Shown here: one piece after another, positions 10,749 to 60,943 of the stretch
How positions within the stretch are numbered: position 1 is the stretch's first letter
Layout: every line of letters starts with the position of its first letter
Assembly: GCA_050084515.1 (NCBI GenBank)
Contig: CM114271.1
Location: 44,826,001 to 44,890,000 of the forward strand
Length of the DNA: 64,000 bases
Source: Blasia pusilla
Taxonomy: Eukaryota
Direction of reading: 5' to 3'
Notes under the pieces: generated by a model
The model's database searches: none
What the model was told of the DNA's origin: nothing
The model's input: only the letters and a program-made list of their open reading frames with translations
Program-made: the position numbers and the translations under genes

Positions 10749-12502
<1,754 letters not shown>

Positions 12503-26155: not shown

Positions 26156-29100
26156 TGTCGTGCTCATACACATCATTATACAACATACATCGCTATCACC
26201 AAACATACACACAAATACGGACGATCCCATGCTAACTCATGCAATACACACAACTAGACGAGAGGTACAAAAATATTTCCAATTAAATCAAGGAAATCTC
26301 TCTCAACATCTCAAACCAAACTCTCCATGGTGTGCACTCTCTCTCATGTCAAACCAAACCCACTCTCCTAATGAGAGGCTTGGATAACACACACAAGGCA
26401 TGGAGGACCATTGCTCCGCCGCCTTATGCCAAGAGGTTCAACAAAGAGAGAATGAGCTCTCAAGCTGTCTTGGAAGTATACCCCCTTCCTTCTCCGAAGC
26501 TCTCTCCTCGGTAACTTATGCTTGCATGTCATCTCCTTGGCTCTTGACCTATTGTAGCGGGTCAAGGGTCACTTCCCAAAGTGGAAAGTAAACTATACTA
26601 TAAATGGTAATGTACCCAAAATAGTAAGTTATCTATATGGCTCCAAATGAGCCGAAACAAAGGGGAAACCTGCTCTCTCATGTTATATGTGGCCTCAGCA
26701 GGTCATCCTCGACTTCATGAGGCTGTCCTCCAATATCTCCAAAGGTGCTCTACTAGATATCGCCGATCTATCTGTGGATCCAACTCCGCAGCGGCTCCAC
26801 GCGTAACAACAACGGCGACCTCCATCAGGGCAACCCCGCACATCCAACCAAGATCGTCCATATCTCTGGTTGGTCCGTCGATGCCACGGATTCGGCATCG
26901 GATAACCTCAATGCCATAGCGGCAACTACTATTGTAGGTGCTCTATCTGAGCAGCCATCCCAGCCTCACGCGTGACGTCTCTCTTGACACGTCTAGGTGG
27001 CGGGACTCTCCCTCCTCCACGGGAAACTCCACCACCCCCTCAAGCGAATCCAACTCTTCATCCCCCAACATGACCACCTGGTGCACGACCTCTAGGCTCA
27101 TACGGACCAGCAATTGGCTCTGATGCCCTCTCTGCCTCTCAGTCCGGACGTAACTCATGGTGTAGGTGAAACATTTGGCACGTGTGTGACACTACCTCTG
27201 AGAATAGTCACACTGATAACCTCCTAGTGCAGCACCATCTCCTCCTCCATTCTGAGGCACGCGTCCATGACCTTGACGAGTGCAATCGTGCTCATGATGG
27301 GCTCCACCACACGACCAACAAATAATCATAGGCGGCTGCTGGTGAGCGGCATATGCAGGCGTAGGTCTTTATGGCACAAGCTCGCGCTAACCTCCATGCG
27401 CTCCCGATGCCTCTATGAGAATCCTCCACGTTGCTGCATTGGTGGTGCAAATACTCGTGGCTGCTCTCGCCCAAAACTCATGGTGGCTATGATCTCCTCT
27501 ACCATGTTGCGCTCAATATTCTCAGCGGTCCTAAATACATCTTTCAACGTAAGTGAGGTGTTCATAAGAAGCACCCCTTCCCGCACCGGTGTCCGTAGGG
27601 TTCGGTCCTTCATCGCATACCATGACTGGATAGCATGTGACTCTCTCATCCCCTGAGTGACGTTAATCAACCGGCGCAAGCGAGTGTAGGCCTCCAAAAA
27701 ACTCTCACCCGAGCACCTTTGGAAGTCGTGGATGCTCCGCAACTTCTCCATCTGTACCCCCTGGTAGCTCATCTGTAACTCAACCACGGGGTTGAACTTA
27801 GGACGAACCCAATTGGACTATGCAAGTGCTCCATTGCAAGTTATCCCTCCTAAAACATCACTTGTGGAAAAAGCCTCTCATGACTCCTCCTCCTCATTGA
27901 GAAATGGCTCAGTCCATGACACATAATGTGGGTCATAGTAGAGTCTCCATGCCTCATTCTCCTTGGTATATTGGTGGGAGAACTCATGGTAATTGTCAAT
28001 GGGTGCCCCCTTTAGGTGCTCGAACATACCATTCCATGTTTTGAATGGGTTGAACTCTCTAGAGTTTCTAGCCAACTAGGTCTGAGTCACACCAACTCCT
28101 AAACTCTACAATGAAGTCGTGTAACTCTATAGTGCCTATACCACCCAAAAACCTATGCGGTCCTCTATCCCGGTCATCCATCTCGTACGGCCAACTTATA
28201 GGACCACTTAATATGTGTGGTGATGCACTAACAACATCCTCTACTCTCTCCCCCTTGTCTGAAGATGACACAGAAGGAGATCAAAGTGATCTCTCATATG
28301 GAGACCCTCGAAACCTCGCACCACTCCGGATAAATCCTCTAGACCTACTCTCAACTCCACCACCTCGCCTCTCAAAGTCCTGAAAGGACTCCGTGATGAC
28401 CCTTGTGCCCCTCTTGCACGATCACTCTCAATCTCATGAGTAATCACTCAATCACTCAACTAAATAAGCAACACTCAGTCCACACTCCCACTCCCACTCA
28501 GACGTGTATTGTGTGGCAACAAGCGGCGTGGTGCGGAAAATCAACTCACCTATCATCTCATCAACAAAGCATATCCTCAACTCTAGACACGGGTCTATGT
28601 CCGCTAAACCCATACATGAATGATGCTCTCAGCATTTGCATGACCCCCAATATCCCCAAATAACTACCCAATACCCGGAAGTCCTTAACACGTGTAGGGA
28701 AAAAGATCATAATGGGTAACTGAACAAATGTCAATCGCTCCTCAACAACTACAAATCTTGACCCTAACTCGATCATGAAGACAAACTCCTCCAAATAGCA
28801 AGTTGTACTCCTTTGGTACTGAGTATGCTCCAAAATATCCTCGATGTGCGATGCGGGTCCAACGGTACGGTGCGGCACTAAGAGATATACCCTCCTCAAT
28901 AGCACCACACACTCTGTTCTAATGATGTTGCAGCTCCGCGATCAAGATAGTGCGGTGCGGCGATGAGTGGCACGGCGCAAAAATTGGTGGCGAGTTGCGA
29001 CCACAAGCGTCACGGCATGATACTCGATCGTTGTCGAGCGGCTACCACCTTAAGACATAGCAAGTCGTGAAGAAAAATGGGATCCCATCAATCCAAAAGG

Positions 29101-31217
29101 TCATTTGTCATCATTGGTTGATGACAAAACTATATGACAGAATCCAAGTGACGGACAGAGCCCCCGTAGTAACCAACCGTGCAACCATGTAAGGTAGCCT
29201 ACCCACGATAAAGAACGCACGTACGTTGTGCCTTGTCGGACCCAACCACTTGTAACCACGATTGCTTCCAGGCAGAGTAGGAAGTGTAGATGCAGTAGAC
29301 GCGGTGACTATAGGAACGACCATCACGGCGGCTGCAGACAGAATGCGACAAAGGGTTGCAAGCCACAAAGCAACGGATGGCGGGACTATGGCAAGACATA
29401 GTCCCCCGATTGCATTGCAAACTGCGGCACAAACGTGGTAGGTCACGCCAGAGCCACATCGGAGCAGTTGCCGCTTATGCGGGCTGACTGAGCGACTGAG
29501 AGTAAGGTTGAATGCGGTCGGTCAACAGTCGACAAATCTGGAAAATAGTCGTAGCTCCAGATAGCAACAATCCGTGCTAGTGGTGGGTGGCGTAAGATCC
29601 GTGGCGGCTGCAGTGAGGAAGTAGCCGTGTCAGCGGGTTGTTAGCAATAGACGGGGCGGATGTGGCGTTGAGGGCAGGCCGTGGCAAATCGGGGACAAGC
29701 AGGGCGGTAGTCGAGCAAGCACGGACTCCGGAAGGTCAAAGGCCGACAAAAAATCGCAAAGTCGGAGCGCGTGAGGGTAAAGACCCAACATCAATATTAG
29801 CTACTCCCGGAGTCGAGAAGGTCATCAGCTGGACGGCGATTGAAGCAACAGGCGGAAAATCCCGTAGCGGCGGTCGTGGCATGGTAGTGTGAAGAAAGGG
29901 TAGGCCTAACGGGACGCAATAGGGAGGGCACCCTCCCCCCTTTTCTTGTCATCTTACTCAAATAAATCCTGGGAAAATTGGGTCTACTCCCTAAATCTTT
30001 CCCAATTTTGGCTTCAACTCACACTCTTCACAAAAAAATAGGGTCAAATCCCCTGATAAACAATTTTCACCCCAACTTCTACCTCAAAGGACATGTGCCC
30101 TTGTCTTATCCACATAAGTAAAAGGAATTTTTTTCCCACTTCTCAAAAATATTTCTACCCAGGGATTTTAGAAATTTCACTCACACCTTCCAATAGTGGC
30201 GATGGTAGCCACACGAGAACTATTGTAACTTATTTCTCATAAAATGAAATTGTGCACCATTTCTTCCACAAAATACACAGCTTCTTGATCTAAAAATTTG
30301 TCAAAGCGATTTCTCCATATGATCTTCCACCAAAAATTGAATGGAATTTTTATGCACCCCACTGTCTCTTTCTCCTACGCAAATTTTGGCAACGCTTCCG
30401 CGCTGATTTCTCCCAAGGAAAACTTCACACGTGTAAAATCAGCACTCAGAGGGGCACATGGTGTTGCCGAGAGCACCGACATGGGGACATTCGCCCTCAT
30501 CCTCAATATCTAATGAAAATTGGGTAGCGCTTCTGCGTGCAATTATTCCCTACAGAAATTAGCACTGAAAAATAGCAAACTCGAGCGGCTCTTGCTCCGG
30601 CGAGCACTCCCATGAGCTGCTGAATGGGGAACATGGTCCCCAACCTGGACATCAACGAGTGACTAGGAAGCTCCTCCATTGAAGCTCTCTCACTCTCTCA
30701 TTCTCTCTTTGATCAAGGAAATCTCTCTCAACATCTCACACCAAACTCTCAATGGTATGCACTCTCTCTTGTGTTGAACCAAACCCACTCTCCTAATGAG
30801 AGGCTTGGGTTACACACACAAGGCAAGGGGGACCATAGCTCCTCCGCCTCATGCCAAGAGGATCAACAAAGAGAGAATGAGCTGTGAAGCTCTCGCTCTT
30901 GGAGGTATACTCCCTTCCCTCTCCGAAGCTCTCTCCTCGGTAACTTATGCTTGCAAGTCACCTCCTTTGCTCTTGACCTGCTGTAGCAGGTAAAGGGTCA
31001 CTAACCAAAGTAGAAAGTCAACTATACTCCAAATGGTAACTTATCCAAAATAGTAAGTTTATCTATATGGCTCCAAATTAGTTGAAACGAACAGGAGACC
31101 TGCTCTCTTAGGTTACCCGTGGCCTCAACAGGTCATCCTCGATCTCCTGAGGCTGTCCTCCAATATCTCCAAAGATGCTCTATTAGATCTCTCTGATCTA
31201 TCCTAAAAGTCGTGAGA
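26156..31217 (-). mobile_element. Family-1 split-repeat element with internal deletion (A1, 5' region, gag, A2, B2)
   Basis: A1 ~30712-31217. Gag 26773-28440 matches 35770-37484. Deletion junction at 26772/26773. A2 ~26284-26772 lacks its first ~14 bp. B2 26156-26283 ends GCACGACA. Confidence 0.85.
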
Positions 31218-33100: not shown

Positions 33101-33679
33101 TATTAAATTTTACATTTTCCAAGTAGAACAACAAGGTTGATGATATATTACACATTATTTAAAAACAAGTTTAAGATTGTATAAACTTAAAGTTTCTTAA
33201 TTATTTGGTTTGCACTTGGATCCTTTTTTGGCTCAATGTTATCACATCCTTTTCAAAACCAATTTGATAGAGAAGTATTTGCAAGTTCATGTTATATGTA
33301 GTTTTATTCGAGCTCCACTTTTGTTAGTGGTTGAATGATCATGCCATCCAAGTGGAGTAGAGACTCAGAGACAAATGATTAAACCCCCGTGTAGATGAAC
33401 TTAAGAATTGATTCAATATATACCATCAACTATACAAGGAGCATGTTGCTAGTATGATGAAGACGCCAAGAAATTTTCATGATAGAGTTTCAGTGAGCTT
33501 CTAAAGGCTTGGATGCCTACTCATCTCTTGGACTCTTCATTTATTTTTTGGTCTGATTTTTACAGGTATTAAAATTTTCTTTGTTGTAATGGTGTTGTAT
33601 ACATCCAACATTCCAAGCTCTATGTGGAATTTTATATTAGTTGTGAGAAAACAAAATGTGACGTAAATACTCAAATATG

Positions 33680-34239
33680 TGTCACGTCCTTTAGGATAGA
33701 TCGGTGAGATCTAGTAGAGCGTCTTCAAGAGTAGTGGAGGACAGGTCGAGGATGACTTGCTGAGGCCCCTAGAGGCAGGTCATCCCCTTCGTTTTGGCTC
33801 CGGGAGGTAGGTCATCCCCTTCGTTTTGCTGCTGAGGCCCCGGGAGGCAGGTCATCCCCTTCGTTTTGGCTCATTTGGAGCCATATTGAGGAACTTACTA
33901 TTTTAGGTAAGTACCATTTTGAGTATATGATCGACTTTATATTTTTGGTAAGTGGCCCTTGACCTCCTACATCACGTCAAGAGCCAAAGAGGTGACTTGG
34001 GAGAATAGGTTACCATGGAGAGAGCTTGGGAGAAGGGAGGGGTATATATCCCAAGGAGAGAGAGCTTGAGAGCTCATTCTCTCTTTGTTGAACCTCTTGG
34101 CATGAGGCGGTAGAGCTATGGTCCCTTGCCTTGTGAGTATAACCCAAGCCTCTCATTAGGAGAGTGGGTTTGGTTTGACATGAGAGAGAGTGCACACCTT
34201 TGGGAGCTATGGTGTGAGATTGTGTAGAGAGCGATTGGA
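33680..34239 (+). repeat. Split direct repeat A1
   Basis: Near-identical to 43064-43584, apart from a rearranged block at 33745-33860. Not followed by B. Confidence 0.92.
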
Positions 34240-35907
34240 TCTTACTTTACAAAGAGAGAATGCGAGAATGAGAGAGTGAGAGAGCTTCATGGGGGAACTC
34301 GCTGGTCAATCGTTGTTTTTGCAGGTTGGGGACCATGTTCCCCATTCAACTGCTCATGGGAGTGCTCATCGGAGCAAGGGTTGCTTGGATTGTTCTTTGC
34401 ATTTGCCGAGTTTTCGTGTGGAAGAGTGGCGCGCGGAAGCGCTGCCCAATTTTTGATAGTGATTGAGTATGGGGGCGGGTTGCCCCATGCCGGTGCTTTT
34501 GGGAGCACCATGTTGCTTTCTGATTTGCATTTTTATAGGTTTTACATTTTTTTTGGGAGGAATTAGCACGGAAGCGTTGCCGAATATTGGGTAGAAGAAA
34601 GAGACATTGGGCTTTACGACAGTTCCCGTCAATTTTACTCAAATGTCCAATTCCAAATGTTTTTTGATGCAGGTGTAGATCGTGAAGCTGTGCACGCTGT
34701 GCAATAACCAGTGCGCAATTTGGAGTTGCGAGCAAAAAGTTATGGTTAATCTTGAAAAACTGTCATTGCTAGGAGATTTGTATGGTTAAATTGTGCAAAC
34801 CCTAAACCAACCGCCACACCGGCGGCGGCCGTCGCCGTTATAGTCACCGTCAACCATCAACGGTCAACTTTCACCGTCCATGGTCAACCGTCACCAGCGA
34901 CGGTCAACTGTCATTGTCAATGGTCCACCGTCCATTGTCCACCCTTGGTTGCCATTGCCGCCGTTAAGGAGTGGAGGGTCTTCCACAACGTTCGTTGATT
35001 CTCGGACTTGCGTCGCCATCACGTACTTTGTTTTGGCCGCCACCGTCATCAACTTGTGATGGCATATGACCTCCTGTTATAGTGTTTGAGTTTTGATATC
35101 CTGGTGCTTGTTGTGATTGGTAGCCGCTCAACGACGATCAGGTACCGTGCCGTGACGCCCGTAGCTGCAACGCGCCGCCGATTGCCATGTCGTGCCGCTC
35201 GTGGCCGCACCGCACCATCTTGATTGCGGAGCCGCTCTGGCATTGTGGAGCAGAGTGTGGGTTTATTTTTGATTGAGGAGGGTATGCCGCCGAGTGCCGC
35301 ATCCCATCATCGAGGGTCGTGCCGTTCGTAGCCGTTCCGTGCCGCCGCAACGCCGCACCGTTCCGTTGGAACTGCACCGTCTATCGAGGAGTTTTGAGCA
35401 ACATCGGTATGGGAGGAGTATCACTTGCTGATTGGAGGAGTTGTCTCCACGACCGAGTTGGGGTCGAGATTCGCAGTTGTTGAGGAGCGACATCGACATG
35501 TGTTCAAGTTACCCATTATGGTCCTTTACCTTGCACGTGTAAGGGATTATGGGATTTGGGTAGTTTATTTGGGGATATTGGGTGTGTGAATGGTGAGAGC
35601 ATCATTTATGTATGTGATTTAGGGGACATAGACCTGTGTGGGATATCCGGAGTTGAGGGTAGGTTGTCGATGAGATGATAGCCTGGTCGATTTGCCGCAC
35701 CACGCCGCTTATTGCCGCACGTTACATCTCGGGGAGGGAGAGTGAAGATCGAGTGCCGCATGTTTGGGATGAGTGATTGAGGGATTACTCGCGAGGCAAG
35801 AGTGATCGGGTGAGAAGGGAACGAGGGTCATCACGGCATCCATTCGGGACTTTGAGAGGCGAGGTGGTGAACCCGACAGTAGCTCTAGAGGTTTTACGGG
35901 GAGTGGC

Positions 35908-37100
35908 GTGAGGTTCCGAGGGTCTTCACTTCAGGGACCACCTCGACCTCCTTCTGTGTCATCGTCAGACAAGGGGGAGGGTGTAGAGGAATTTGTGAGC
36001 ACATCGCCACACAATGTGAGTGGTCCTACTTGTTGGGCGTACGATATGGACGACCGAGGTAGAGGACCGCGTATTTTTTCAGGTGTAGTAGGTACGATTG
36101 AGTTCACAATTTCATAGCAGAGTTTAGGAGTTGGTGCGACTCCCAGCAGGCCATGAACTCTAGAGAGTTCAACACGTTTACAACATGGAACGGTATGTTC
36201 CAGCATTTAGAGGGGGCACCCATGGACGATTACCATGAGTTCTCCCACAGATATGCCCAGGAGATTGAGGCATGGCGACTCTGCTACGACCCCCACTATG
36301 TGTCATGGACGGAGCCGTTCCCAGATGAGGAGGAGGAGTCATGAGAGGCTACTTCCTCTTCCACTAGTGATGTTTTAGGAGGGGTCATTCGCACTGGAGC
36401 AGTTGCACCGTCTAGTCGGGTTCGTCCCAGGTTCAACCCTGTGGTTGAGTTCTTTGCTGAGTTGAGGGCGAGCTACCAAGGGGTATGGACAGAAAAGTTG
36501 CGGAGCATCCACAACTTCCAGAGGCGCACGGGTGAGAGTTTACGTGAGGCTTACACTCGCTTGCGCCGGTTGATCAACGTTACTCAGGGGGTGACGGAGG
36601 CTAAGGTTATCCAGTCATGGTACGCGATGCGGGACGAGACTCTACGACCACGGGTGCGGGAGGGGGTGCTTCTTATGAACATCTCCCCTACGTTGAGAGA
36701 TGTTTTTAGGACCGCCGAGAACATTAAGCGCAACATGGAGGAGGAGAGCGTAGCCACCATGGGTTCTAAGCAAGAGCAATCGCGATTGGCTCGCACCACG
36801 TGTGCAGCAACGTGGACTCCGAGATAGGTCAAGTGTGGCACCACGAGCTCAGGGAGGATACCGGGAGCCCGTGGCACAGAGACATGCGCCTTCATATGCG
36901 GCTCAACAGAAGCCGCCTACTATTACTTGTTGGCCATGTGGAAGAGCCCATCATCAGCGCCATTGCACTCGTCAGGGTCATGGACGTATGCCTCAGCATG
37001 GAGGAGGAGATGGTGCTCCACCAGGAGGTTATCAGTGTGACTATTGTTAGAGGTATGGTCATACACGCACCAAGTGTTTACGTTTACATCCTGAGTTACG
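35908..37100 (+). pseudogene. gag: gag (capsid-like region and two zinc knuckles)
   Basis: FQRRTGESLREAYTRLRRLI retrotransposon-gag motif. Knuckles CWPCGRAHHQRHC and CDYC*RYGHTRTKC. Stops and frameshifts present, true start uncertain. Confidence 0.8.
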
Positions 37101-37959
37101 TTCAGACCGAGGGCCAGAGAGGGCACCAGAGTGAGTAGCCGGTCCGGGTGGGCCTAGAGATCATGCACCAGGTGGTCCCGTTGGGGGACGAGGAGCTCGA
37201 GTTGCCCGATAGGGTGGTGGAGCTGCTTGTGGAGGAGGTAGAGTACCACCACCTAGATGCGCCGAGGGAGACGTTGGACGTGAGGTTGGGATGGCTGCTC
37301 AGATATAGCAGCTACAGGAGCAGATTGCCGCTATGGCATTGAGGTTACCTGATGCCAGATCCGTGGCATCGACATCATATGGAGCAGCTAGAGATCTGGA
37401 GGATCCTGGTTGGATGTCCGGGGCTGCCTAGATGGAGGCCGCCGCTATTGTGACGCGTGGAGCAGCCGTAGAGTTGGATCCACAACGAGAAGCCAGAAAA
37501 CAGACTAGGCTTCCTCAATCTTTCACGTTGTCCAAAGCGATGAGGATCCCATCGATGGGTCCTCATCAAAGTTCCTAGAGAGTTGGTGATGTTGTTGGTG
37601 TGCAGGCACGGAGGGCGATGGGAGAAGCGAGTGCAACGACTCCTATTGTTGATGCTCATGAGGGGCATCTGTCGAGCACATTGTTGGGGGCGGCCACCGT
37701 TGTGTACCGCACTCCTTTATTTTCTGCTTCGGATGTTATGACGTTGGGGGGTACGCCCGCCGAGGCATTTTGGCTGGCCGCGTTGCTATGTGAGCGCAGA
37801 GTTGGAGTTCTTGCATCACGTTCAGAGGTGATTGTAGAGGAGGTGATGGACCTGCCCTTGGAGCGGATGCTCGGACCGTCCACGTCAGATTCATGGCAAG
37901 CTGCGGCTGCTAGAATGGCGGAGATGCCCGCTAGACCCGCGATAGAGTATGCCATGGCT

Positions 37960-38376
37960 TCTCCTAGTGTTGTGTTGCTGGATAACCAAGGAGAGGTCTT
38001 CCAATTGGTGAGTCTTGGAGGAAGAGCTTTTAGTCCGCAACGCGTCTTGTTGGATTCAGGAGCGCAACCCCTGATGTTGGGAAAAGCGTCATTCAGAGGA
38101 TTGGGCTTGACGAGAGCCGATGTGGAGCGTTGTCCATTCCGGATACAGACATCCTTGGGTGGAGCGAATACCACACAGTATATCACCCAACAAGAGGTCA
38201 TGGTGAGGATTTGCCCGGGACATCCTACTGATGAGTCTGTGGTGCGCGCCAAGGCGATAGTGACTGATACAGAGTCCTACGACGTCTTGGTTGGTGAAGG
38301 AGTGTTATACCCGATGGGGTTTTCCCTGGATAACTGGGAGGAGTGCGTCCTACAGACCAAGATAGCAGTCAGGTGA
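37960..38376 (+). pseudogene. Retropepsin aspartic protease domain
   Basis: RVLLDSGAQPLMLG catalytic motif and C-terminal YDVLVG. Confidence 0.85.
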
Positions 38377-38761: not shown

Positions 38762-39380
38762 GGTATTTGAGTGTTAGATCTCTTTGGAGGGATTGGCACT
38801 GGGTTAGCTGCTGTTTTGTAGGCAGGAGTGCGAGTACAACAGTATCTGTATGTATAGGAGAGTGATGATGTTGCAAGGCGCGTCTCACTACGACATGTGG
38901 CGCGATTACGCCTACGTTTTCCCGACTCATTATGCAAGGTCAGCGATCTGAATACCGAGTTCCTTCCGAGGGATATTTCGTTGTTGGGGGCGCAGGACTT
39001 AGAGCGGGTAGGGACCGTTGATTTGGTCATTGCCGGTTGGCCATGTCAAGGCCAATCGAGTGTTGAACGAGGCATGGGTTGGCGGACACTCGGTCCATGT
39101 TGTTTTGGGAGATGTTGAGGGTCTTACGTCAGTTGCAGGAGTACCAGTCTCATTCTCCAACCGACATTGTGGAGAATGTGCCGATCTTAGGAGACTCCCG
39201 GTCACGGGTGGTGACAAGTGTTCATCAAGTGCGTGCCTAGATCGGCCCAACAGTGTTCTTGGGTGCGGCGAGTGTAGGATTCTTGGATGCGGCAAGAAAT
39301 GACGTCGTGATGCCTCTTGGGTCAGGCGATGGACCTGAACTGCTTGACATGGATCCTCAGCTTGGGAGTGGCTGAGCAGC
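38762..39380 (+). pseudogene. DNMT3-like C5-cytosine DNA methyltransferase domain within pol (disabled in this copy)
   Basis: Motif I GI*VLDLFGGIGTGL (38762-), motif IV DLVIAGWPCQGQS (PC at 39041-39046), GLADTRSMLFWEMLRVL, motif VI IVENV (ENV 39172-39180), motif X-like LLGQAMD (39314-). Confidence 0.9.
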
Positions 39381-39688
39381 GTCGTATGAGATCGCAACAG
39401 CTCATAGCGGTTGCGTTGGTGAGCCCCATGCCTACCGAGACGGTGGAGGTAGTGGCTGGGGGCGACACCCGAGGAGATCGGGAGAGACACCCTTGGACTT
39501 CTTGGGAATTTTTGCAAGTACGCAAGGAGATGATAGCCACAACATTGAGCGTGGTTTCGGGCATTGCACGTGGAGGAGATAAGAGTTTGCAGTTGGCTGC
39601 AAGAGAGCGGCTGAGTGTTGTTGTTCGAGACGGGGTTGCACCATAGCAACCAGCGATACCGCGACCGGAGAGTCCTACCGTAGTCACG

Positions 39689-41110
39689 ATGGAGACTTGG
39701 GAGCCATATATGGGCCCTAAGTTGACAGGAGAAGAGCGGCGCCGAATACATCAATTCCTCAAGAGTTATAGGAGCTGCTTTGCGTTTAGCATGGAGGATT
39801 TGGATACGCTGAAGGGACCGGGGATCCGCATTGAGTTGTCGAGTGATACGCCAATCTTCCGACGACCCTACAGGTACAGTGATATGGAGAGGGCTCTGAT
39901 TCAGAGTAGGAGCCAAGACTTGGTCAGAGCAGGACTAGTGGAGATGTCGCATGGACAGTATGCATCTGCCATTGTAATGCCCGCCAAGAAGGATGTGCAT
40001 GACAATTGGACGGATAGGCGGATGTGTGGGGATTACCGACCTATCAATCGGCAGACGAAGTCCGATAGGTATGCCATGCCCACCCCTGAGGAGATCTTTG
40101 ATGCGATTGGTCATGCAAAGGTCTTTAGTTCATTGATTTTTGAAGTCGGATACCATCAACTACCTATCGATTGGAGGACAAAGTAAGACGGCATTTTGGG
40201 GCATCGATCCTCACGGGAAGGATTGTTTGTACCAGTGGCGGTTCTTACCATTTGGGTTAAAGAACGCCCCGGCTGAGTTTCAGAGGGTCATGGATAGGAT
40301 CTTGGCTGGTCTGGATTTTGCTAAGTGTTATATTGATGACATCGTAGTCTTTACCGCCACGGTTGAGGATCATGAGCGACATAAAGAGGAGGTGTTTCGA
40401 CGATTGCAATTACATGGGCTGAAGCTACATCTAGGCAAGTGCAAGTTCTTCTACGACCAGATTGAGTACTTGGGTCATACGATATACCCAGGGGGCCTTG
40501 GTGTTCAGCAAATGAAGGTAGAGGCTATCTCACGCATTCCACGCCCTATAGATGTGAGCCGGGTTCGCGCATTCATGGGATTGGCGAACTTCTATCGGCA
40601 ATACGTAAAGGGATTCGGTTTGATTGCGAAGCCAATGACCTTGCTGACCAAGGTGGATCACGAGTGGCACTGGGGGGATGAGCAGGAGCAAGCATTTCAG
40701 TTGCTCAAGGACATGTTGACGTCTGTGCCCATCTTGAGGAGACCAATCAGGGGGCGTCCTTTCCAATTGCACACAGATTGGAGCATGTTGGGGCTTGCAG
40801 CGGTGCTCACCCAACATGATAATGATAGTAGAGAGTTCGTGGTGGCTTACGCTAGCCGCTCGAACAACGCTGCAGAGGCAAAGTATAGCTCGTATGAGGG
40901 TGAGTGCTTGCTGCGGTGTGGATTGTTGCATATTTCAGGTGTTACTTATTCGGCAACCCCTTGACCATCACCACTGAAGTGGTTGATGGAGTCCGACAAG
41001 CTTACAGGGAAGCTTGTGAGATGGGCTCTGTTGTTGCAGGAGTATGATTTTCAGGTGGTACATAGACCTGGGACGCTCAACCAAGATGCAGATGGGTTGA
41101 GTCGTAAACC
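39689..41110 (+). pseudogene. pol: Reverse transcriptase and RNase H (Ty3/Gypsy type)
   Basis: RMCGDYRPIN, LPFGLKNAPAEFQR, YIDD (40329-40340), LHTDWS, AYASR, YSSYEGE, NQDADGLSR. A few frameshifts. Confidence 0.95.
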
Positions 41111-41399
41111 ATGTTCGAGTCAGCGAGATGCGACTGGAGCTCGATGGCATGGAGAGAGTGATAAGGAGTCGGTGCTAGGATGGCACGCGTCAGCCTATTT
41201 AGGCATGTTGGCTTTGGAGAGCCAGAGTGTGGAGACTTCGATGGCGAGTCCTAATGGAGAGTCCTTAGATCCCGAGGCCAGTGAGGAGACGACAGGTGGC
41301 TGAGATATTCATGATGATGGAGTAGTCTTGGAGTACCTTCATGATCGGCAGCGTTTAGCAATCTTTGAGGTGCTAGAGAGCGAGATCGGATCCTACAGC

Positions 41400-42600
41400 G
41401 GGTCAGACGCTTCCGTTGGGAGGGGACACATGTTTTGAGGGTTTGGGAGGATGGCAGAGTACGCGTAGTGCCACATCTTTCGCAGAAAGCACGACTAGTG
41501 CAGCATGCCCACGAGGAGTTGGGTCACTTTGGGGTGAAGCGGACGTACAGCTTGCTCTAGATTTAGTATTGGTGGCGAGGCATGCAAACTGACGTTCAGC
41601 AGTTTGTTGCCATGTGCATGGTGTGTGATCGGGTCCGAGCATCGTTCCATGCTCTAACTCCACAGTTGCATCCATTACCGATCATGGGCTTAGGGTGTAG
41701 ATGGATTTTGGATTTTGCAGGACCTTTGCCTTTGACAGAATGTCATGGTTGTTATGTGTTGGTGATGGTCGAGCACTTCTCAAAGTGGATCGAGTTGGTT
41801 GCATTGCCTGACAAAGCGAGTGAGGGAGTAGCTTATGCCTTCCTTGACAGAGTGTTGAGTCAATATGGTGCACCGGTTGAGGTGTTGCAGACCATGGTAC
41901 CGAGTTTCGGGGTGAGTTCCAAGCCTTGTGTGATCAAGCGCTGATCGACCACCGCACGACTTGGCGAGATCATCCCGAGGCGGATGGATTAGCGGAGAGA
42001 GTTGTGCAGACGGTGAAGAGAGGTTTACGCAAGTATGGCTTGCACAGAGGTCACCTAGGAGATTGGGACCTCCAGTTGCCATGGTTGGCGATGGGAAACA
42101 GATTCAGCAGGCAGACATCCTTAGCATCTTTTTCACCGTATTTGCTACTTTATGGCCGAGAGCCAGATTTACCTACGGCCATTCGTCGAGATGCTGATGA
42201 GGTGCTGGACCTTGATGACCCAGATGTATGGGTGCGAGCATGTTCTCAGAGGGCTGAGTTGTTTTGGAGAGTGATGCCCATGGCGTTTGAGAACTTGGCG
42301 ATTGCGCAACATCGAGATACGTTGAGGTATGTGACTATTCGGGGAGGTGGTTATCGACCAACTATCGGGAGGTTTCATCGGGGAGATTTTGTCTACTTGC
42401 AGCAGACGGCACCGACGACGTTGGATGTGACTACATGGCGTACTATCCTGAGAGTGCTTGACGTTTTGCCATCCGGTGTTCTTTTGCTGGAGGGACGCGA
42501 TGGTATGGTATGGAAGGACCATGTGCGTAATTGTGCACCATGTCACCTTCCTAACATTGATAGTACAATGGATCCGAGCTTAGTAGTAGTTCCAACAGGC
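41400..42600 (+). pseudogene. DDE integrase with HHCC zinc domain
   Basis: HAHEELGHFG...CMVC, LDFAGP, EHFSKW, DHGTEF (frameshifted), HPEADGLAERVV, SPYLLLYGR. Confidence 0.93.
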
Positions 42601-42606
42601 TTGCGT

Positions 42607-42747
42607 TGTATGTTGTGTGGTTCTGCCCGTGGTGCGGCCACGATGGTGGTCTGTGATGGTTGTTCGAGAGGTTGGCATATGGCATGTCTGACGCCACCTC
42701 TCACTAGGGTTCCTTGGGGACGATGGATGTATGCCACATGTACTTAG
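42607..42747 (+). pseudogene. C-terminal PHD finger fused in frame to integrase
   Basis: CMLC...MVVCDGCSRGWHMACLTPPLTRVPWGRWMYATC fits C4HC3, with the penultimate Cys mutated to Tyr (TGT>TAT). Confidence 0.9.
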
Positions 42748-42930
42748 AGGAGATACTAGGTAGGTTTCGATCCCGACTTTTTCTCTGACATGGATGACAT
42801 GAAGGCGACTAACAATGGGGCCACATGAGCACCCGGCCTTCTTGCTCTTAGCGTCCGGGAGATGTATGTCATGGTAGGTAGGGATAGATGGCTATCTGGA
42901 GTTATAGGGACCTAACCACCAACTAGGGGG

Positions 42931-43061
42931 GCGATTGGAGATACTTTGGTACTTCTTGTCTCGTTGTTTGGATGCCATAAGTTAGCATGGGATCGTGCGT
43001 GTTTGTGTGTGTGTTTGGTGATAGCGATGTATATTGTGTAGCGATGTGTATGCGCACGACA
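42931..43061 (+). repeat. Split direct repeat B1
   Basis: Near-identical to 43578-43706. Ends GCGCACGACA. Confidence 0.92.
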
Positions 43062-43063
43062 AG

Positions 43064-43706
43064 TGTCACGTCCTTTAGGATAGATCGGTGAGATCTAGTA
43101 GAGCGTCTTCAAGAGTAGTGGAGGACAGGCCTAGGAGGTCGAGGATGACTTGCTGAGGCCCTGGAAAACCTGAGAGACCAGGTTTCCCCTTCGTTTTGGC
43201 TCATTTGGAGCCATATTGAGGAACTTACTATTTTAGGTAAGTACCATTTTGAGTATATGATCAGCTTTCTATTTTTTGTAAGTGGCCCTTGACCTCCTAC
43301 ATTAGGTGAAGAGCCAAAGAGGTGACTTGGGAGAATAGGTTACCATGGAGAGAGATTGGGAGAGGGAAGGGGTATATATCCCAATGAGAGAGAGCTTGAG
43401 AGCTCATTCTCTCTTTGTTGAACCTCTTGGCATGAGGCGGCAGAGCTATGGTCCCTTGCCTTGTGAGTATAACCCAAGCCTCTCATTAGGAGAGTGGGTT
43501 TGGTTTGACATGAGAGAGAGTGCACACCTTTGAGAGCTATGGTGTGAGATTGTATAGAGAGAGATTATGTAGAGAGAGATTGGAGATATTTTGGTACTTC
43601 TTGTCTCATTGTTTGGATGCCATGAGTTAGCATGGGATCGTGCGTGTTTGTGTGTGTGTTCGGTGATAGCGATGTATGTTGTGTAGCGATGTGTATGCGC
43701 ACAACA
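43064..43706 (+). repeat. Split direct repeats A2 (43064-43584) and B2 (43578-43706)
   Basis: A2 matches A1 and B2 matches B1. They overlap at GATTGGA. Confidence 0.92.
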
Positions 43707-44832
43707 TATGTTACAAATCTTGGAGATACAAAGTGACCTACTCTGTTCGTGCGCTCACACAAGAGCTTCGATGGAATTGGCCTTGAACATGGATATAACT
43801 CGTCATACGAGAATACGTTATCACTATGGCTCCCGGCTATTTGACTTCTCGAGAAATCAGGGTTTTTACCTAATTTTCTTTGTTTCTATTTATAGAAAAA
43901 ACCGTGAGGGATTGCGTCCTATACCCCCGCGTCATTTGGCATCGCATCTAATCCTACTCCAAAAACCACCTTCATGATATTATTATAACTCCTCCAACGT
44001 CTAAGTCTGAACCATCAGTCCAAGCTTCTCCTTGTATAAGGGGGCCGATCAGTTTAATGTTGAGAATCCAATATTTTTTTGATAGTGACTAATAAATTTG
44101 CTTGAAGTAATTAATTTCAAAGTGGGTTGATTCATTGAATTGTGATGGTGAATATTTGATAATTAGAGAATAAATTTTTCTATCACAAAGTATACAAGTT
44201 TGGGAGCATCTAATTTTTGGCTAGCCAAATCTCACACATCGATGACAAAGATAAATTCCATGGAAGAAAATTTCCAATTGGCCTCTTGAAATTCAAAGTT
44301 TTGATTGTTAATGATCATAGTGCATAACTCCTATTTCCAAACTTGGACAATGATCCACCACAACTATTGGTCAATCAAGCTTTGGGTAGTTATCAGTTGT
44401 GGCCAAACAGTAATGCCAAGAAAACTCAAATTCTTGCACCTTAGTTTTTAAATTAGATTAGAGATTATTTTAGGTTTTTTGGTGAATTCCAATTCCTCTT
44501 TTACAAGAATTTTGAACTTCAATTTATGTTGTTAGTCCTAGTGCTATATGCACATTTTGGCTAGTAGTGTTGTGAGTTATATTTCTATTGTTAAGTTTGA
44601 ATATCTTCCATCATCATAGAAATGAACGTCAATGAATCTTTGTTTATTGAATTTCATGCATCATCATAAGATGCAACATGCATATGATATATTTTTTTCA
44701 TCGTTATTTTTCTAATATTCATGTAATTTCAAGCTACATTGTGGGCTTCTAATGATTTTGAAATTCTTTACATTAAGGAAACTGGTATAGTTATTAAATA
44801 GGTATCATGTGCATACACAATATACATTATGG

Positions 44833-50072: not shown

Positions 50073-53000
50073 TGTCACATCTTATTCCGACGTAGGTAGA
50101 GTTCTATCGTGTCGACGACATAGTGAGTCAACGGGCTGTTTGGGTGTAACTTTGTCTCAAGATGTCGGATAAGGTTGGCAACAGGTCTGTTGTGTCGGGA
50201 ATGTTGTTTATGGCAATTTCCATATTTTGGTTTTAGGCTGTCAAGTAGCCCGTTCACCGAGTCAACGGTCACTCGATAACCTGTGCACATAGGTTACCGT
50301 TTGGAGGGCTACTTTTTTGGGAAGAGCCTTTTGGCTCTCCCCAAGGATATAAGAATGAGAGAGATGGTTTTCCCAAGCTATCTTTCTCATGTTGAGCCTT
50401 AGGAGCGCCTCTCTTGCATAGACGTGTGTGGATACGTAGGAGTTAGGGTGCTAGCGTCCCGATTCCCTCGTAGTAGAGGGTGGATGTGGTGTCGCCTTAA
50501 GGAATAACTCAGTTTTCCTCGAGTCTAGAGTTGCTCTTTCGGAAGAAGAAAATTGAAATAACCGCTTCTCAAACTCCGCAATAATTCATTTGAAGTCATT
50601 CACTTCCCTAGACGTTGCTCTATCCATTCTAAAAAACCCCTCTTAGTCACCCAATCCACATCATCATGGAAGAATTCTCCTTTCAGCAACTGCTCATACT
50701 CCTCCCACGAGGTTGGATTTTTTGCTCTCAACTTCTTTACTTGACTATGAATCTTTGGTGTTACAGCTAAGTCAAAACTTGACACCATATCACCTTCGGG
50801 TACACGATTTACCTCCATCTCACATACTTACTCTCTAACATACTTGGTGATGTTCATCCCATCAAATCTCCCCAACTTCTTTACAATCGCTTGAAGAGCC
50901 CTTGTTGATCTTTGCTCTCCTATGTGAACTCCTCCTTGTTGGCTCAACAATGTTGTCAAAGTTCGGAGAAGATCCTCAACTCCCTCAGTTCCCATTGATG
51001 AAGTACTACCAAAAGTCGTCATCTTGATAAGACTCCAACTTGCAAACACAATCTACCACCTCAAAGATCTCTTAGTGGAAGCACCATTTGTCATGTCGAG
51101 AGCCTTTCTTTGAGTAAGGGCAGGCCTTCTAGTTGCGGCAGACGTGGTCGATGAAAGGTGAACTCTCTAAGAAGTTATATGTTTTCAATACAAAATTATT
51201 ATGTATACTCTCCATTCTCTTACAATAGGTATCACAAATGGAAGTGTCGAGGCGATCACTTCTTTGTAACATCGGACCCCGGAATTCCTAACTATAAAAT
51301 CCCTATAAACTACTTTGCGCTTGTACACGAGGAAGATAGCACAACTAATGTTAAACCCTAATTGAGCAGGCCTATTGACGTCCGTGGATCGCTATATAAG
51401 GACATACAAAGTACAATCCCATGTATTTCCATATGTAACGATAGGAAGGATCACCGAAGTTGGAGATTGAATGATCTGGTTCATGAACACCTCTCAAAAG
51501 TGATAAACTAAATAGCGAGTGAACCAATGCTTATCTACAAAAAGTATCTTGACATGGTATGGATTCAGGAAAGGAAAGTCGGGCATAACTCGTGCTCCAT
51601 CCCTATCCACGCTTGACAGACATTCTCTACTCTCCTCAAGAATGAGTTTTGGCGGAGTTATTCTCCCAAGAGGGGTAGTCCACTCTCATTGGGAAAGTAA
51701 CAAGCCAAAATATCCACTATTTTAGTATGACTAAACTCTTATAAGGTAACAAACCTCTCATCTCCACACACACACACCACACTCTAGAATCCTCTTCAAG
51801 AATAGACCATGGTCAAGTTACTCTCCCAATAAAGGTGATCCACTCTCATTGGAAGAGCAAGTAATCCCAAAGCCATACACTCAAGAGTGACACGAGAAAC
51901 TCAAGATGCGGAATAGAAGGTGATGAACCCTTGAAAGTCTCTCCTCTTTATATACTCACAAGTGATCCATAAGAGTACGAAATAGAACTAATCTTATCTT
52001 GTGCCACATGGCTTCCTCTCAAGGCTTAGCCAATCACATTTTGACGCAAGTAGATTTCCTCTTATCTCTGCCAAAATATCCTCTTTTACCCACTTGATAT
52101 TTTCGAAATTACCCCAACTAACCTAGCCACCAACCAAACCTAGCTTTTCTTTTCATTAAAGCTCCAACCTCACTACTTTACTTTTATAAAGTCGTCTTTT
52201 ATTTATTACCTCTTTTCCTAAAGTTGGGCCCGCATAAAAGAGGCACCATAAAGAGGTTTAAACATGGGAATTTACTTTTCCTAAGCTAATTTACTTAATA
52301 CTAATAAAACCCTATCTAACACTTAACGAGGAAAGAGTTTACACACTGGCTGATTTTACTACACGACAATGGTGACCACGTTGGCAACATTCATAGTTGG
52401 TGTTCATTGATCAGAAGGGTTTGGAGAGAGGAGCACACATGCGGAGGATATTCTCGTAGTGGATAGTCCCACAGAGAGACATGCCAAGGTGGGTGTTTCT
52501 TTCCATGGTTCAGAACTTCTTTATTATTGTTCGGGACGAGCGTTGAGATGCATGGAGTGCAGATAAGATCGTGAGGTAGGCGTGGAGCTGTGCCTATGCT
52601 TGGATCAAGGTACGAGAGTGTTAGATCTCTCCGGAGGGATCAACACAGGGGGTTGTTGTAGTGTGGCAGTGTTGTAGGGATGACGATATCGATGTGTGTA
52701 GGATAGGAGATCTTGTCGGATACATATGTATGTGCTATCTCGAGTTAGGGGGACCCAACTGCCAGCTAGGGGGCGGTTTTCGGGTCCCAGTATATATGTG
52801 TGAGTATGTTTCATTTATGTGTGGATCTACTCGTATGTCGGGGAAGATTGGTGTTGTGTGGTGTGTACATGTGACCAACAATGTGGGTTGTATAGCAATG
52901 TGTATGCACACGATAATTGTCACATATTATTTCAACGCAAGTAGAGTTCTATCACATCGACGGCATAATGAGTTAGCGGGATGTTTGGGTGTAACTTTGT

Positions 53001-53558
53001 CCGGAGATGTCGGATGAGGTTGGCGACAAGTCTGTTGTGTCAAGATTATGGAAACAAGTCTGTTGTTTATGGCGATTTTCCTATTTTGGTTTTAGGCTGT
53101 CAGGTGATCCGTTGACCGAGTCAACGGTCACCCGCTAACCTGTGCACGCAGGTTACCGTTATGAGGGCTATTTTTGGGGGAAGATCCTTTTGGCTCTTCC
53201 TAAGGTATGAGAATGAGAGAGATGGCTTTCTCAAGCCATCTTTATCATGTTGAGCCTTAGGAGCGTCTCTATTGCATAGACGTGTGTGGATGTGATTGAG
53301 TTAGGGTGCTAGCGTCCGGATTTCCTCATAGCTGAGGGTGGATGTGGTTCGATATGCCAATGTAGATTCATGAGTGTAGTTTTAGGCTGAGTGAGCCATT
53401 TTTACTACTCTTGATTTTGTTGTGGGATCCCAGTGTCTACGTGTGAGTATGTTTCATTTATGTGTGGATCTACCCATATGTTGGGGAAGATTGGTGTTGT
53501 GTGGTGTATAGATGTGACCAACAATGTGGGTTGTGTAGCGATGTGTATGCGCACCACA
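50073..53558 (+). mobile_element. Family-2 split-repeat element (A1', inserts, MTase remnant, B1', A2', B2')
   Basis: A1' 50073-50490 matches A2' 52918-53350. B1' ~52776-52915 matches B2' ~53419-53558. Junction CACGATA-AT-TGTCACA. ATAT on both flanks (50069-50072, 53559-53562). Confidence 0.88.
50491..51554 (-). mobile_element. Ty3/Gypsy 5' fragment (LTR 51089-51554, TGG-starting PBS, gag) nested in the family-2 element
   Basis: ORFs 50828-51049 and 50600-50818 (LGRFDGMNITKY, SWEEYEQLLKGEF) are gag-like. LTR homologous to 8521-8973. Confidence 0.65.
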
Positions 53559-60900: not shown

Positions 60901-60943
60901 GAAGTGAAGCAGGGGAGGGAACCAGTAGGAATTTGGCAGGAGG

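Follow-up and report, generated by a model that had tools for sequence, protein, structure and literature searches.

Split repeats and an invariant two-nucleotide abutted-ends site in Ty3/gypsy retrotransposons of the green lineage: a candidate internal site for integrase

In the usual account, retroviruses and LTR retrotransposons integrate linear cDNA by its termini, and LTR circles are dead ends. The 64,000-nt stretch of DNA analysed here (the window) raises the question of why a retrotransposon should carry in its interior a copy of its right end abutted to a copy of its left end, and how such a site might be used. Three junctions of this type were read directly from the sequence: CACGACA (43055-43061)-AG-TGTCACG (43064-43070) in copy I, CACGACA (10588-10594)-GT-TATCACG (10597-10603) in copy II-a, and CACGATA (52909-52915)-AT-TGTCACA (52918-52924) in copy III. 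In all three, the right end (..CACGAYA) adjoins the left end (TRTCAC..) across exactly 2 nt. Allowing at most one mismatch, the pattern CACGAYANNTRTCAC had three matches in the window against 0.23 expected, and none of 100 shuffled sequences reached three. The half-sites correspond to true element ends: the 5′ repeat of copy I begins with TGTCACG at 33680, its 3′ repeat finishes with CACAACA at 43706, and both ends are flanked by TATG.

The window contains several old copies of a green-lineage clade of Ty3/gypsy retrotransposons encoding a protease (PR), a DNA methyltransferase (DNMT), reverse transcriptase (RT), RNase H, a DDE integrase, and a PHD finger (Table 1). The pol order of this superfamily (RVT_1, RT_RNaseH, Integrase_H2C2, rve) was recovered on the forward strand, the protease being recognized by its motif alone, and RT, RNase H, and integrase occur in the same order in the relatives P0015, P0055, and P0064. 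In copy I, the integrase-PHD region is spread over two frames, with the PHD finger at approximately 42607-42741. The DNMT remnant (53 residues) aligns with residues 57-105 of P0015 (E value of 2e-07); the window piece itself has no Pfam hit, and residues 82-140 of P0015 match PF00145. In the relatives, the latter domain either precedes RT or separates RNase H from integrase. Most copies are old, with repeat identities of 84-96%, several loci duplicate one another, and neither L040 nor L045, both complete loci, has an intact reading frame. Nesting and deletion are frequent among the copies in the window.

Table 1. Coordinates of the retrotransposon copies in the window and of the features of copy I (33676-43710).
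Feature	Position	Strand	Remarks
Copy I, left target-site duplication (TSD) TATG	33676..33679	+	same 4 nt at 43707-43710
Copy I, A1, 5′ repeat, begins TGTCACG, no B after it	33680..34239	+	96% identical to 43185-43566
Copy I, TATATA box, then 14-nt CATTCTCTCTTTGT (34075-34088), predicted transcript 5′ end/self-primer	34043..34088	+	
Copy I, predicted self-primer binding site (PBS) ACAAAGAGAGAATG	34249..34262	+	9 nt past the end of A1
Copy I, gag-like frames, CX2CX4HX4C zinc knuckle, degenerate	36345..37050	+	translations; no Pfam hit
Copy I, protease-like frame, LLDSGA motif	37579..38376	+	motif by eye; no Pfam hit
Copy I, C5 cytosine methyltransferase remnant, GWPCQG motif	38858..39118	+	alignment to relative P0015
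Copy I, RT and RNase H, interrupted by a stop and frameshifts	39647..41303	+	PF00078, PF17919, PF17917
Copy I, DDE integrase (H2C2 zinc domain, rve core), C-terminal PHD finger	41567..42747	+	PF17921, PF00665, PF00628; relatives
Copy I, polypurine tract AGGGGGG	42925..42931	+	directly upstream of B1
Copy I, B1, internal duplicate of the right repeat's 3′ terminal part, ends CACGACA	42932..43061	+	95% identical to 43578-43706
Copy I, 2-nt spacer AG between the abutted ends	43062..43063	+	
Copy I, A2, begins TGTCACG	43064..43584	+	last 7-9 nt ((GC)GATTGGA) common to the start of B
Copy I, B2, right terminus, ends CACAACA	43577..43706	+	
Copy I, right TSD TATG	43707..43710	+	
Further copy, 3′ part: internal sequence, CTAGGGGGG tract (~1693-1701), B	1..1842	+	
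Copy II-a: B1 10465-10594, spacer GT, first 150 nt of A2	10465..10747	+	
Copy II-b: nested, internally deleted, A-internal-B (one B, no A2)	10749..12502	+	
Copy IV: A1 31215-30722 without B, internal 5′ region, A2-B2 26772-26156	26156..31215	-	
Copy III: another family, 3.5 kb, non-autonomous	50073..53558	+	TSD ATAT (50069-72, 53559-62)

Two equal TG..CA LTRs were not found in these elements: the termini are TG..CA, but the 5′ repeat consists of segment A only and the 3′ end reads B-NN-A-B, NN being the 2-nt spacer. The repeats are thus split in the order A1-internal-B1-NN-A2-B2, a layout present in at least four repeat families. Segment B was absent from the 5′ repeat in all 12 of the 5′ ends scored automatically and in three more inspected by eye (copies III, IV, and II-b); past 34239, copy I diverges from A2-B2. 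TSDs flank the start of A and the end of B. Among 12 complete copies, seven had perfect 4-bp TSDs (copy I, TATG; copies III and II-b, ATAT; L004, ACTA; L040, CATA; L045, ATGT; L069, CCAA), two matched at three of the four positions (L008 and L058), and three had none (L042, L074, and copy IV). The individual copies show the following peculiarities. Copy III comprises A1 (50073-~50492), B1 (52776-52915), the spacer AT, A2 (52918-~53348), and B2 (53419-53558). The A2 segment of copy II-a is split by copy II-b, resumes at 12507, and is followed by a B2 ending at 12966; copy II-b is bordered by its TSD at 10745-48 and 12503-06 and contains a (GA)n run (~11170-11322). Copy IV has lost B1 and the first ~15 nt of A2. 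The further copy is of the B-only form: its B segment ends with CACGACA at 1842, beyond which the sequence is unrelated. A1 of copy I contains a short internal tandem duplication (~33760-33860).

Additional copies were obtained from metagenome contigs, from which two further families, F40 (B of 115 nt) and F45 (B of 179 nt), were named. The arrangement B1-NN-A2-B2 was located downstream of the integrase-PHD gene in 29 loci (28 tabulated loci plus L050; approximately 23 distinct once duplicate contigs were removed). The spacer was 2 nt in all 29. It was also 2 nt in L014, L017, L035, L036, and L077, which belong to other families, as determined with a regular expression allowing 0-6 nt. The letters varied, with GC in 13 of the 28 tabulated loci, AC in 8, GT in 4, and AT, TC, and AA in one each, to be compared with AG, GT, and AT in the window. 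The usual spacers (GC or AC) followed 6 of 21 single-B ends, a proportion too weak for use. The initial annotation had claimed that the two end sequences abut across 2 nt in three independent copies, and the abutment held in the three window junctions and in the 29 loci. Since the spacer, invariant in length and variable in letters, is unlike the 4-bp TSD, it does not have the free or TSD-sized length expected of a chance tandem insertion. The independence of the copies was borne out in part: the window copies fall into two or more repeat families that cannot be aligned outside the conserved termini, but these termini are common to all, and the lineages are not fully independent.

Stranded RNA reads carrying the same species label spanned the whole element in the sense orientation. 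In 351-nt bins, and with reads ambiguous between A1 and A2, depth was 83-155 in the bin containing B1-NN-A2 and 5-12 past the end of A2, indicating that B1 and the abutted-ends site are present in the RNA and that B2 is mostly absent from it. Polyadenylation is predicted at A2|B2 or slightly upstream of it, with B2 serving as a downstream element. Fragment ends were piled at 43561 and 43563 (five molecules each, from one run), an observation that is uninterpretable. Joints in DNA contigs connecting 34248 to 43586, and 42926-42930 to 43578-81, are as expected from mis-placement between A1 and A2 and between B1 and B2, and were not used.

The borders of A and B coincide with candidate priming signals. 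In copy I, nucleotides 34075-34088 are a 14-nt perfect complement of 34249-34262, a length reached by none of 500 control windows (largest, 10); the TATATA box is 32 nt upstream of 34075, and the same site occurs in A2 at 43405. More generally, 10-16 nt past A1 were complementary to one site in A, at position ~161-171 in F40 and F45 and 396 in copy I. For 11 5′ ends, none of 500 control windows was as good in five, 2 of 500 were in one, and 5-6 of 500 in four, the complementarity being not significant in the last one. The distance from the TATA box to the complement was 32 nt in 4 of these 11 ends, 34 nt in L069, and 23 nt in L004 and L005. No self-primer complement of at least 9 nt was found in A of copy III. 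A tRNA-type PBS was rejected, the sequence past A1 being neither TGG-initial nor conserved between families, as was a PBS at the start of A2 (TGTCACG..), since a tRNA 3′ end requires TGG and the self-primer site already accounts for the end of A. Every B1 of F40 and F45 began 0-2 nt from a G-run, and B2 began at the same nucleotide within a few positions. These features suggest that the minus strand is primed from a Tf1-like self-primer site directly past A1 and the plus strand from a G-run polypurine tract directly before B1.

With primers at these two positions, standard rules of reverse transcription predict a cDNA of the form (B-NN-A)-internal-(B-NN-A). The predicted LTR being B-NN-A, the A2|B2 boundary would be a joint between the U5 end and the U3 start, and the ends used by integrase would lie inside U3. 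Since the polypurine tract lies 115-180 nt upstream of the integrase end, the LTR defined by priming and the ends defined by integration differ. The genomic form A-internal-B-NN-A-B would then be a circular permutation of the predicted cDNA, with the opening at the left LTR's NN site and the cDNA termini joined as A2|B2. Reverse transcription alone was rejected as a source of this form, four combinations of primer positions having been worked through without yielding it. The interpretation in the initial annotation is thereby partly supported. Its pre-formed junction stands insofar as integrase-type ends abut in a transcribed internal sequence. The site is not, as had been supposed, a joint of cDNA ends, being encoded by the template within U3, 115-180 nt downstream of the polypurine tract. 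Likewise, the proposed circular or permuted cDNA agrees with integrated copies that are circular permutations of the predicted product, but the product expected from standard rules is linear, with B-NN-A as its LTR.

Because a linear cDNA is predicted and the copies are permuted, a further joining step is needed. The A2|B2 boundary is heterogeneous, as end-joined DNA would be. In F45, joints were full, 2 nt short, with an extra G, or with 5 nt lost and a G added. The L011 joint contains an 18-nt insert partly repeating nearby A sequence. In copy I, the joint (43577-43584) lacks the 9 nt that separate A1 from the PBS (34240-34248), lost at a 7-9-nt microhomology. Joint types did not cluster on the copy tree (7 changes versus 7.3 in shuffles), and L046 and L080, like L045 and L056, are well-supported sisters with different joints. 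The two commonest types differ by 2 nt within an ATAT run, which could reflect slippage.

We consider it probable, though by no means assured, that the cDNA ends are joined and that integrase opens one abutted-ends site (..CACGACA-NN-TGTCAYG..) within U3; from the anatomy, we infer the following steps. The cDNA termini (U5 end and U3 start) would be joined imprecisely to form A2|B2, either before integration, giving a joint of the 2-LTR-circle type, or once a "split-end" integration has taken place with the small B fragment kept in the intasome. A single integrase complex would cut both strands 3′ of both CAs of one abutted-ends site, leaving two CA-3′OH ends with a common 2-nt 5′ overhang, which would be inserted with a 4-bp stagger. 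Two cuts made at a single site would account for the invariant 2-nt spacing. Single-B copies (A-internal-B) may be direct products, from both sites of the linear cDNA or one site of a 1-LTR circle, or may result from later B1/B2 deletions; devoid of the 3′ R, they would not be expected to replicate autonomously. The NN site occurs twice, in identical form, in a linear cDNA as in a 2-LTR circle, and opening the other one would generate A|B-NN-A-internal-B. This permutation was found at none of 15 5′ ends, against 29 loci of the observed form, an asymmetry that a simple circle model would leave unexplained.

That asymmetry is accommodated by a template switch, in which the plus strand, at the right end of the linear cDNA, jumps end-to-end from the U5 end to the left end (the start of B) and copies B and NN without any circle or host end-joining. 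The product, (B-NN-A)-internal-(B-NN-A)-(B-NN..), would be excised by integrase from the leftmost A start to the rightmost B end, in a cut-and-paste-like manner. Such a switch yields the observed permutation only, in agreement with 0 of 15 for the other form; it predicts an imprecise U5|B joint, as seen at the microhomology of copy I, and the inner B end would also give rise to single-B copies. However, ends always taken from different NN sites would not hold the spacer at 2 nt in 29 of 29 loci, there is no homology at the joint in F40 and F45, and end-to-end template switching is inefficient in known reverse transcriptases. We regard it as rather unlikely. A more doubtful proposal is that A-internal-B is the regular product, made by cutting the single NN site of a 1-LTR open circle akin to the relaxed circle of pararetroviruses, and that B-A-B copies are a minority 2-LTR by-product that alone can replicate. 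Approximately 21 distinct single-B copies against approximately 23 B-A-B copies would fit, as would the perfect TSDs of L004, L069, and copy II-b, and single-B copies are the more frequent in F40, which has the shorter B (12 versus 7), and the less frequent in F45 (9 versus approximately 16), contrary to the expectation from B1/B2 recombination. Single-B copies with surviving TSDs would nonetheless also result from deletion between B1 and B2, F40 and F45 differ in age, and the counts come from metagenome contigs. The lineage would also be a costly one, its main product being unable to replicate; should single-B copies be primary, much of what is inserted would be inert from the outset.

Ordinary rearrangement, in which an A+B LTR lost B from its 5′ copy or a solo A-B was inserted in tandem by chance, draws on the abundance of nested and deleted copies in the window. 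It is very improbable and conflicts with the census: the layout recurs in at least four repeat families with a fixed 2-nt spacer unlike the 4-bp TSD, B follows A1 in 0 of 15 cases, and the 5′ border of B coincides with the polypurine tract and the 3′ border of A with the primer site. The order A1-internal-B1-A2-B2 is also typical of split-direct-repeat DIRS elements (PMC8969392), which raises the prospect of a DIRS-order element of the Ngaro or PAT type integrated by a tyrosine recombinase via a circle. The protein domains and the TSDs contradict this reading, which has almost no probability left: the window and three long relatives gave RVT_1, RNase H, Integrase_H2C2, rve, PHD, and DNA_methylase only, PF00589 was also absent from the Pfam lists of 120 relatives, and 4-bp TSDs are present, whereas DIRS elements make none.

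Joining of the cDNA ends followed by opening of the internal site, the reading that we prefer, can be extended, tentatively and with less than even confidence, to a green-lineage clade with relatives in Klebsormidium and the Volvocales. These elements may replicate via an obligatory joined-ends intermediate, with integrase opening a U3-encoded, palindrome-like abutted-ends site rather than the cDNA termini, which would be sealed by end-joining. Anatomy alone separates the ends made by RT (polypurine tract and primer site) from those used by integrase in several families. A plant or algal system would make two points testable, the use by integrase of an internal abutted-ends site and the productivity of joined cDNA ends. 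Annotation tools that expect equal LTRs would call A the LTR, take B2 as flank, and miss many single-B copies. No description of the mechanism was found in the literature searched.

The arrangement of the repeats is already known from KnitGypsy-Dnmt3 of Klebsormidium nitens, a Gypsy-type polyprotein element with an inserted Dnmt3-like DNMT, in which one figure-legend sentence reports it without a mechanism (de Mendoza et al. 2018, PMC5890265). The window elements conform to that definition (gypsy domains with A-coding-B-A-B repeats) and share the gypsy-type polyprotein and the repeat layout; they differ in that the window DNMT is only a remnant and the host is liverwort-like. The portions of that paper on the element mention nothing of the junction, primer sites, TSDs, or origin of the structure (PMC5890265). 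A Klebsormidium protein, P0012, is among the integrase-PHD relatives (51% identity). In Chlamydomonas, the PHD-finger Gypsy element Gypsy-7a_cRei shows activity in laboratory strains, with new insertions reported, and only 8 bp are missing from it, a loss left unexplained in the relevant part of the source, compared with 115-180 bp in the window elements (PMC9940879). Self-priming is documented for Tf1/Sushi and expected for plant Tcn1, and the survey passages concerned do not name the PHD lineage (PMC6317226). The likeness to Tf1, Sushi, and Tcn1 would lie in the putative priming signals, the sequence following the 5′ repeat being complementary to the predicted transcript start and not to a tRNA; those elements have ordinary symmetrical LTRs, unlike the window elements.

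DIRS split-direct-repeat elements (Ngaro, PAT-like) share the A1-internal-B1-A2-B2 order (PMC8969392). In both groups, an internal B|A joint mirrors the joined termini. They use a tyrosine recombinase and make no TSD, whereas the window elements have a DDE integrase and 4-bp TSDs. In the model proposed for DIRS elements, closure of the cDNA is templated by the internal joint; here, that joint would be the integrase site and A2|B2 the closure. If the extended reading is correct, the mechanism would be the DDE-integrase counterpart of the DIRS/Ngaro split-direct-repeat logic. The window elements also provide a way into the mechanism behind the split direct repeats of DIRS/Ngaro elements, which lack an explanation. 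In IS3-family (IS911-type) circles, the ends abut across a 2-4-bp spacer and a DDE enzyme inserts from the junction. The likeness lies in abutted left and right ends with a short spacer; IS3 elements are bacterial DNA transposons whose junction is formed by the transposase, with no reverse transcription. HIV-1 integrase reportedly cleaves the palindromic junction of 2-LTR circles. Viral 2-LTR junctions have a 4-bp centre, and their role in replication is debated. Foamy-virus integrase cuts 2-LTR circles at their palindromic LTR-LTR junction (PMC1180852). The shared features are a retroviral-type integrase, two abutted viral ends, and regenerated 3′-processed ends, the window providing the site itself and its use being predicted. 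The 2-LTR junction is a joint of cDNA ends, whereas the site described here is encoded in U3, has a 2-bp centre, and appears obligatory. If the extended reading is correct, the A2|B2 boundary would be the first natural case of a 2-LTR-type joint as a productive step.

The window is eukaryotic, has a G+C content of 41%, and is crowded with retrotransposon copies, including copies I, II-a, II-b, III, and IV of Ty3/gypsy-type elements. Their repeats comprise two parts, A and B, in the order A1-internal-B1-NN-A2-B2, in which the right end abuts the left end across a 2-nt spacer (NN). The initial annotation had reported three such sites with a two-base spacer, and direct reading of the sequence bore this out. 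A degenerate junction pattern gave 3 matches in the window versus 0.23 expected, and at least 3 matches were obtained in 0/100 shuffles. No B follows A1 in copy I. The two A repeats of this copy differ by an internal tandem duplication, since a unit of ~40 nt (..aggcaggtcatccccttcgttttg..) occurs three times in tandem in A1 (33740-33860) and once in A2. The A1 repeat of copy II-b contains a (GA)n run of ~150 nt (11170-11322) at the position occupied by a short GAGAGAGAG in other copies.

Features of the retrotransposon copies in the window
Feature	Coordinates	Strand	Description
Copy I	33680-43706		A1 - internal - B1 - AG - A2 - B2; TATG on either flank
Copy I, repeat A (560 nt)	33680-34239 (A1) and 43064-43584 (A2)		96% identical
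Copy I, repeat B (130 nt)	42932-43061 (B1) and 43577-43706 (B2)		95% identical
C5 cytosine methyltransferase remnant	38858-39118	+	GWPCQG motif; copy I, between protease and RT
Copy II-a			Carries the 10588 junction; A2 interrupted by nested copy II-b
Copy II-b	10749-12502		Nested; A-internal-B; target-site duplication ATAT
Copy III	50073-53558		Architecture of copy I, unrelated A sequence; target-site duplication ATAT
Copy IV		-	A1 without B here too
Copy at window start			Polypurine tract-B, then unrelated DNA
Abutted-ends site	43055-43070		CACGACA-AG-TGTCACG; read directly
Abutted-ends site	10588-10603		CACGACA-GT-TATCACG; read directly; copy II-a
Abutted-ends site	52909-52924		CACGATA-AT-TGTCACA; read directly

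A scan of metagenome contigs provided 80 related loci (L-numbers), 56 of which carried the B repeat of family F40 or F45, whose protein identities to the window are ~70% and ~50%, respectively. The remaining 24 loci, either ending too soon or members of other families, were screened by regular expression only. The B1-NN-A2 arrangement was present in 29 loci (including L050, whose B1 match is short), corresponding to ~23 distinct loci after collapsing L047=L048, L056=L058=L063, L067=L073, L068=L079, and the near-identical L049/L052. Tabulation of the spacer length across genomic copies, a check proposed in the initial annotation, gave a constant 2 nt (29/29 loci). The spacer was also 2 nt in L014, L017, L035, L036, and L077, as detected by a regular expression permitting 0-6 nt, and the L039 junction was read by eye as CACATGACA-AC-TATCAGG. 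The abutted-ends site is real and conserved, and is probably a functional feature. Copies of the A-internal-B form (single-B copies), in which X-polypurine tract-B is followed by non-A sequence, amounted to 21 distinct cases from 26 loci, following exclusion of L050 (B1-NN-A2), L065 (truncated B), and L070 (contig end) and merging of L004=L027 and L064=L066. In one of them, L037, a reverse-oriented A follows B. B-NN was not found upstream of A1 in any of 12 5' ends scored automatically or in 3 scored by eye, and automatic scoring of the loci detected no B between two As. In L013 (1541-1817) and L024 (3321-3602), what follows the integrase gene is A from position 177 to 338, its second half, with B directly after it; B1, the NN site, and A2 up to its middle are missing. 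Both loci have this breakpoint in common, suggesting a deletion derivative that was propagated or duplicated.

Window families with repeats that cannot otherwise be aligned share a conserved last ~35 nt of B. At the end of B, the terminal motif (ACGTCACGACA in F45) is repeated 2-3 times in subterminal position (L042-L080, last ~40 nt of B; window 43025-43061), an arrangement that resembles multiple transposase-binding sites more closely than a retroviral LTR tip. In B2 copies, the CpG-containing terminal motif is often CATGACA or CACAACA, as expected from methylated-CpG decay. C>T and G>A dominate the differences of reads and copies from the window (33400-43900 and loci).

Every B1 in the census started 0-2 nt from a G-run, and the start of B2, directly after the end of A2, is at the same nucleotide as that of B1. 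A tRNA-type primer site was set aside, as the sequence following A1 was not tRNA-like but complementary to one site in A, over 14 nt in copy I (34249-34262 versus 34075-34088), 16 nt in L028, 12 nt in L042 and L058, 10 nt in L045 and L069, and 9 nt in L004, L005, and L041. Controls matched as well in 0/500 cases for five 5' ends, 2/500 for L069, and 5-6/500 for four others; the complementarity in L074 was not significant versus 500 control windows. In L040, A1 had its best match elsewhere and A2 matched over 11 nt at the usual place. In copy III, A contained no complement of at least 9 nt to the post-A1 sequence. The complementary site is located downstream of a TATA box, at a distance of 32 nt in copy I, L042, L045, and L058, 34 nt in L069, and 23 nt in L004/L005. 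In Tf1-type self-priming, the 5' end of the transcript itself primes minus-strand synthesis. The primer site and its spacing from the TATA box appear to be the signature of this mode of priming, established for Tf1/Sushi (PMC6317226).

According to standard rules, a polypurine tract before B and a primer site after A imply that the reverse-transcribed LTR would be B-NN-A. The left end of the cDNA would be the nucleotide immediately following the polypurine tract (start of B) and its right end the last nucleotide before the primer site (end of A). The predicted cDNA would then be [B-NN-A]-internal-[B-NN-A], and the genomic copies would be a circular permutation of it, with the opening at the left-LTR NN site. 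The A2|B2 boundary would thus be the joint of the two cDNA termini, and it behaves like an end-joined joint. In contrast to the constant NN spacer, this joint varied. In F45, it was full (..CAAT|ATACATG), 2 nt short, extended by one G, or had gained a G and lost 5 nt. The F40 joint varied by 1-3 nt, and L011 harbored an 18-nt insert partly repeating nearby sequence. Copy I lacks 9 nt of U5 at a 7-9-nt microhomology. Across a tree comprising 15 F45 copies, joint type changed 7 times versus 7.3 in shuffles, with the caveat that the commonest difference is one AT within an ATAT run and that L047 was scored as 'other', though it has a full joint with a U5 variant. Joint types differed within the well-supported sister pairs L046/L080 and L045/L056.

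Target-site duplications were examined at the start of A and the end of B in 12 complete copies. The duplication was a perfect 4 bp in seven (copies I, III, and II-b, L004, L040, L045, and L069), alike at 3/4 positions in two (L008 and L058), and absent in three (L042, L074, and copy IV). Perfect duplications occurred alike in single-B copies and in B-A-B copies, which carry B1-NN-A2-B2.

We infer that integrase acts at the internal abutted-ends site and that the cDNA termini get joined. If each CA of one site were cut on its 3' side, two CA-3'OH ends with a common 2-nt 5' overhang would result, and 3'-processed retroviral ends have this form. The fixed 2-nt spacing argues that one complex would make both cuts, at a single site. 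Joining of the termini could occur before integration, as a 2-LTR-type circle, or after integration, if the B fragment stayed in the intasome and the host sealed the distal ends, or could result from plus-strand end-to-end template switching. The initial annotation, to which the site looked like a pre-formed circle junction for integrase, was right in part: the sites and their abutted ends stand, and a joined-end circle would be one possible intermediate. Only one permutation was observed, the mirror image being absent; speculatively, a possible reason is that the left LTR becomes double-stranded ahead of the right LTR. Single-B copies may have arisen directly or by deletion between B1 and B2. 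The family with the shorter B is relatively richer in single-B copies, which weakly favours direct products.

Three raw, stranded RNA runs carrying the same species label were mapped at 90% likeness (~3,600 reads per run). Reads were mostly 90-95% alike, indicating that most derive from other copies of the family. Coverage was sense and extended along the whole copy I element, with a depth by bin of 83-155 at 42877-43227 (B1-NN-A2), 34-55 in the rest of A2, and 5-12 at 43579-43900. At the resolution of the bins, this profile fits an RNA holding B1 and the NN site and mostly ending near the end of A2. A 71-nt skip at 42714-42786 also appeared in each of the three runs (7, 40, and 12 reads); it spans the end of the PHD-finger frame and is present in no DNA contig of X1. 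The skip may be a small intron or reflect an expressed variant copy; the loose end at 42786 suggests the latter.

The internal part of copy I contains broken frames for a zinc-knuckle gag-like protein, a protease-like protein, the methyltransferase remnant, RT and RNase H, an H2C2/rve integrase, and a C-terminal PHD finger. The integrase-PHD frame had 247 longer protein matches, the closest named relatives being from the liverworts Marchantia polymorpha (76%) and Calypogeia fissa (75%), with further relatives in Klebsormidium and Volvocales, several with PF00145. In three long relatives, Pfam detected DNA methyltransferase, RT, RNase H, integrase, and PHD domains, and no tyrosine recombinase. 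PF00145 is located before RT in protein P0015 and between RNase H and integrase in P0055 and P0064, indicating that the methyltransferase occupies two different places in this clade. The longest open frame in the window (60929-63343, + strand, 804 aa) had no Pfam match at E 0.01.

The elements belong to a barely described kind. The literature searched, which did not extend to supplements and one cited thesis, contained no description of the primer-site logic, the 2-nt site, or the permutation. The mechanistic reading is new as far as this search reaches, and it is testable. KnitGypsy-Dnmt3 is described in one legend sentence, without analysis, as combining Gypsy domains and DIRS-like repeats (PMC5890265). 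The active element Gypsy-7a_cRei displays an 8-bp asymmetry (PMC9940879), and cleavage of a palindromic LTR-LTR junction by the foamy virus integrase provides a precedent (PMC1180852). DIRS elements with split direct repeats have the repeat arrangement found here (PMC8969392), but differ by their recombinase and by the absence of target-site duplications, neither of which is matched in the elements of the window.
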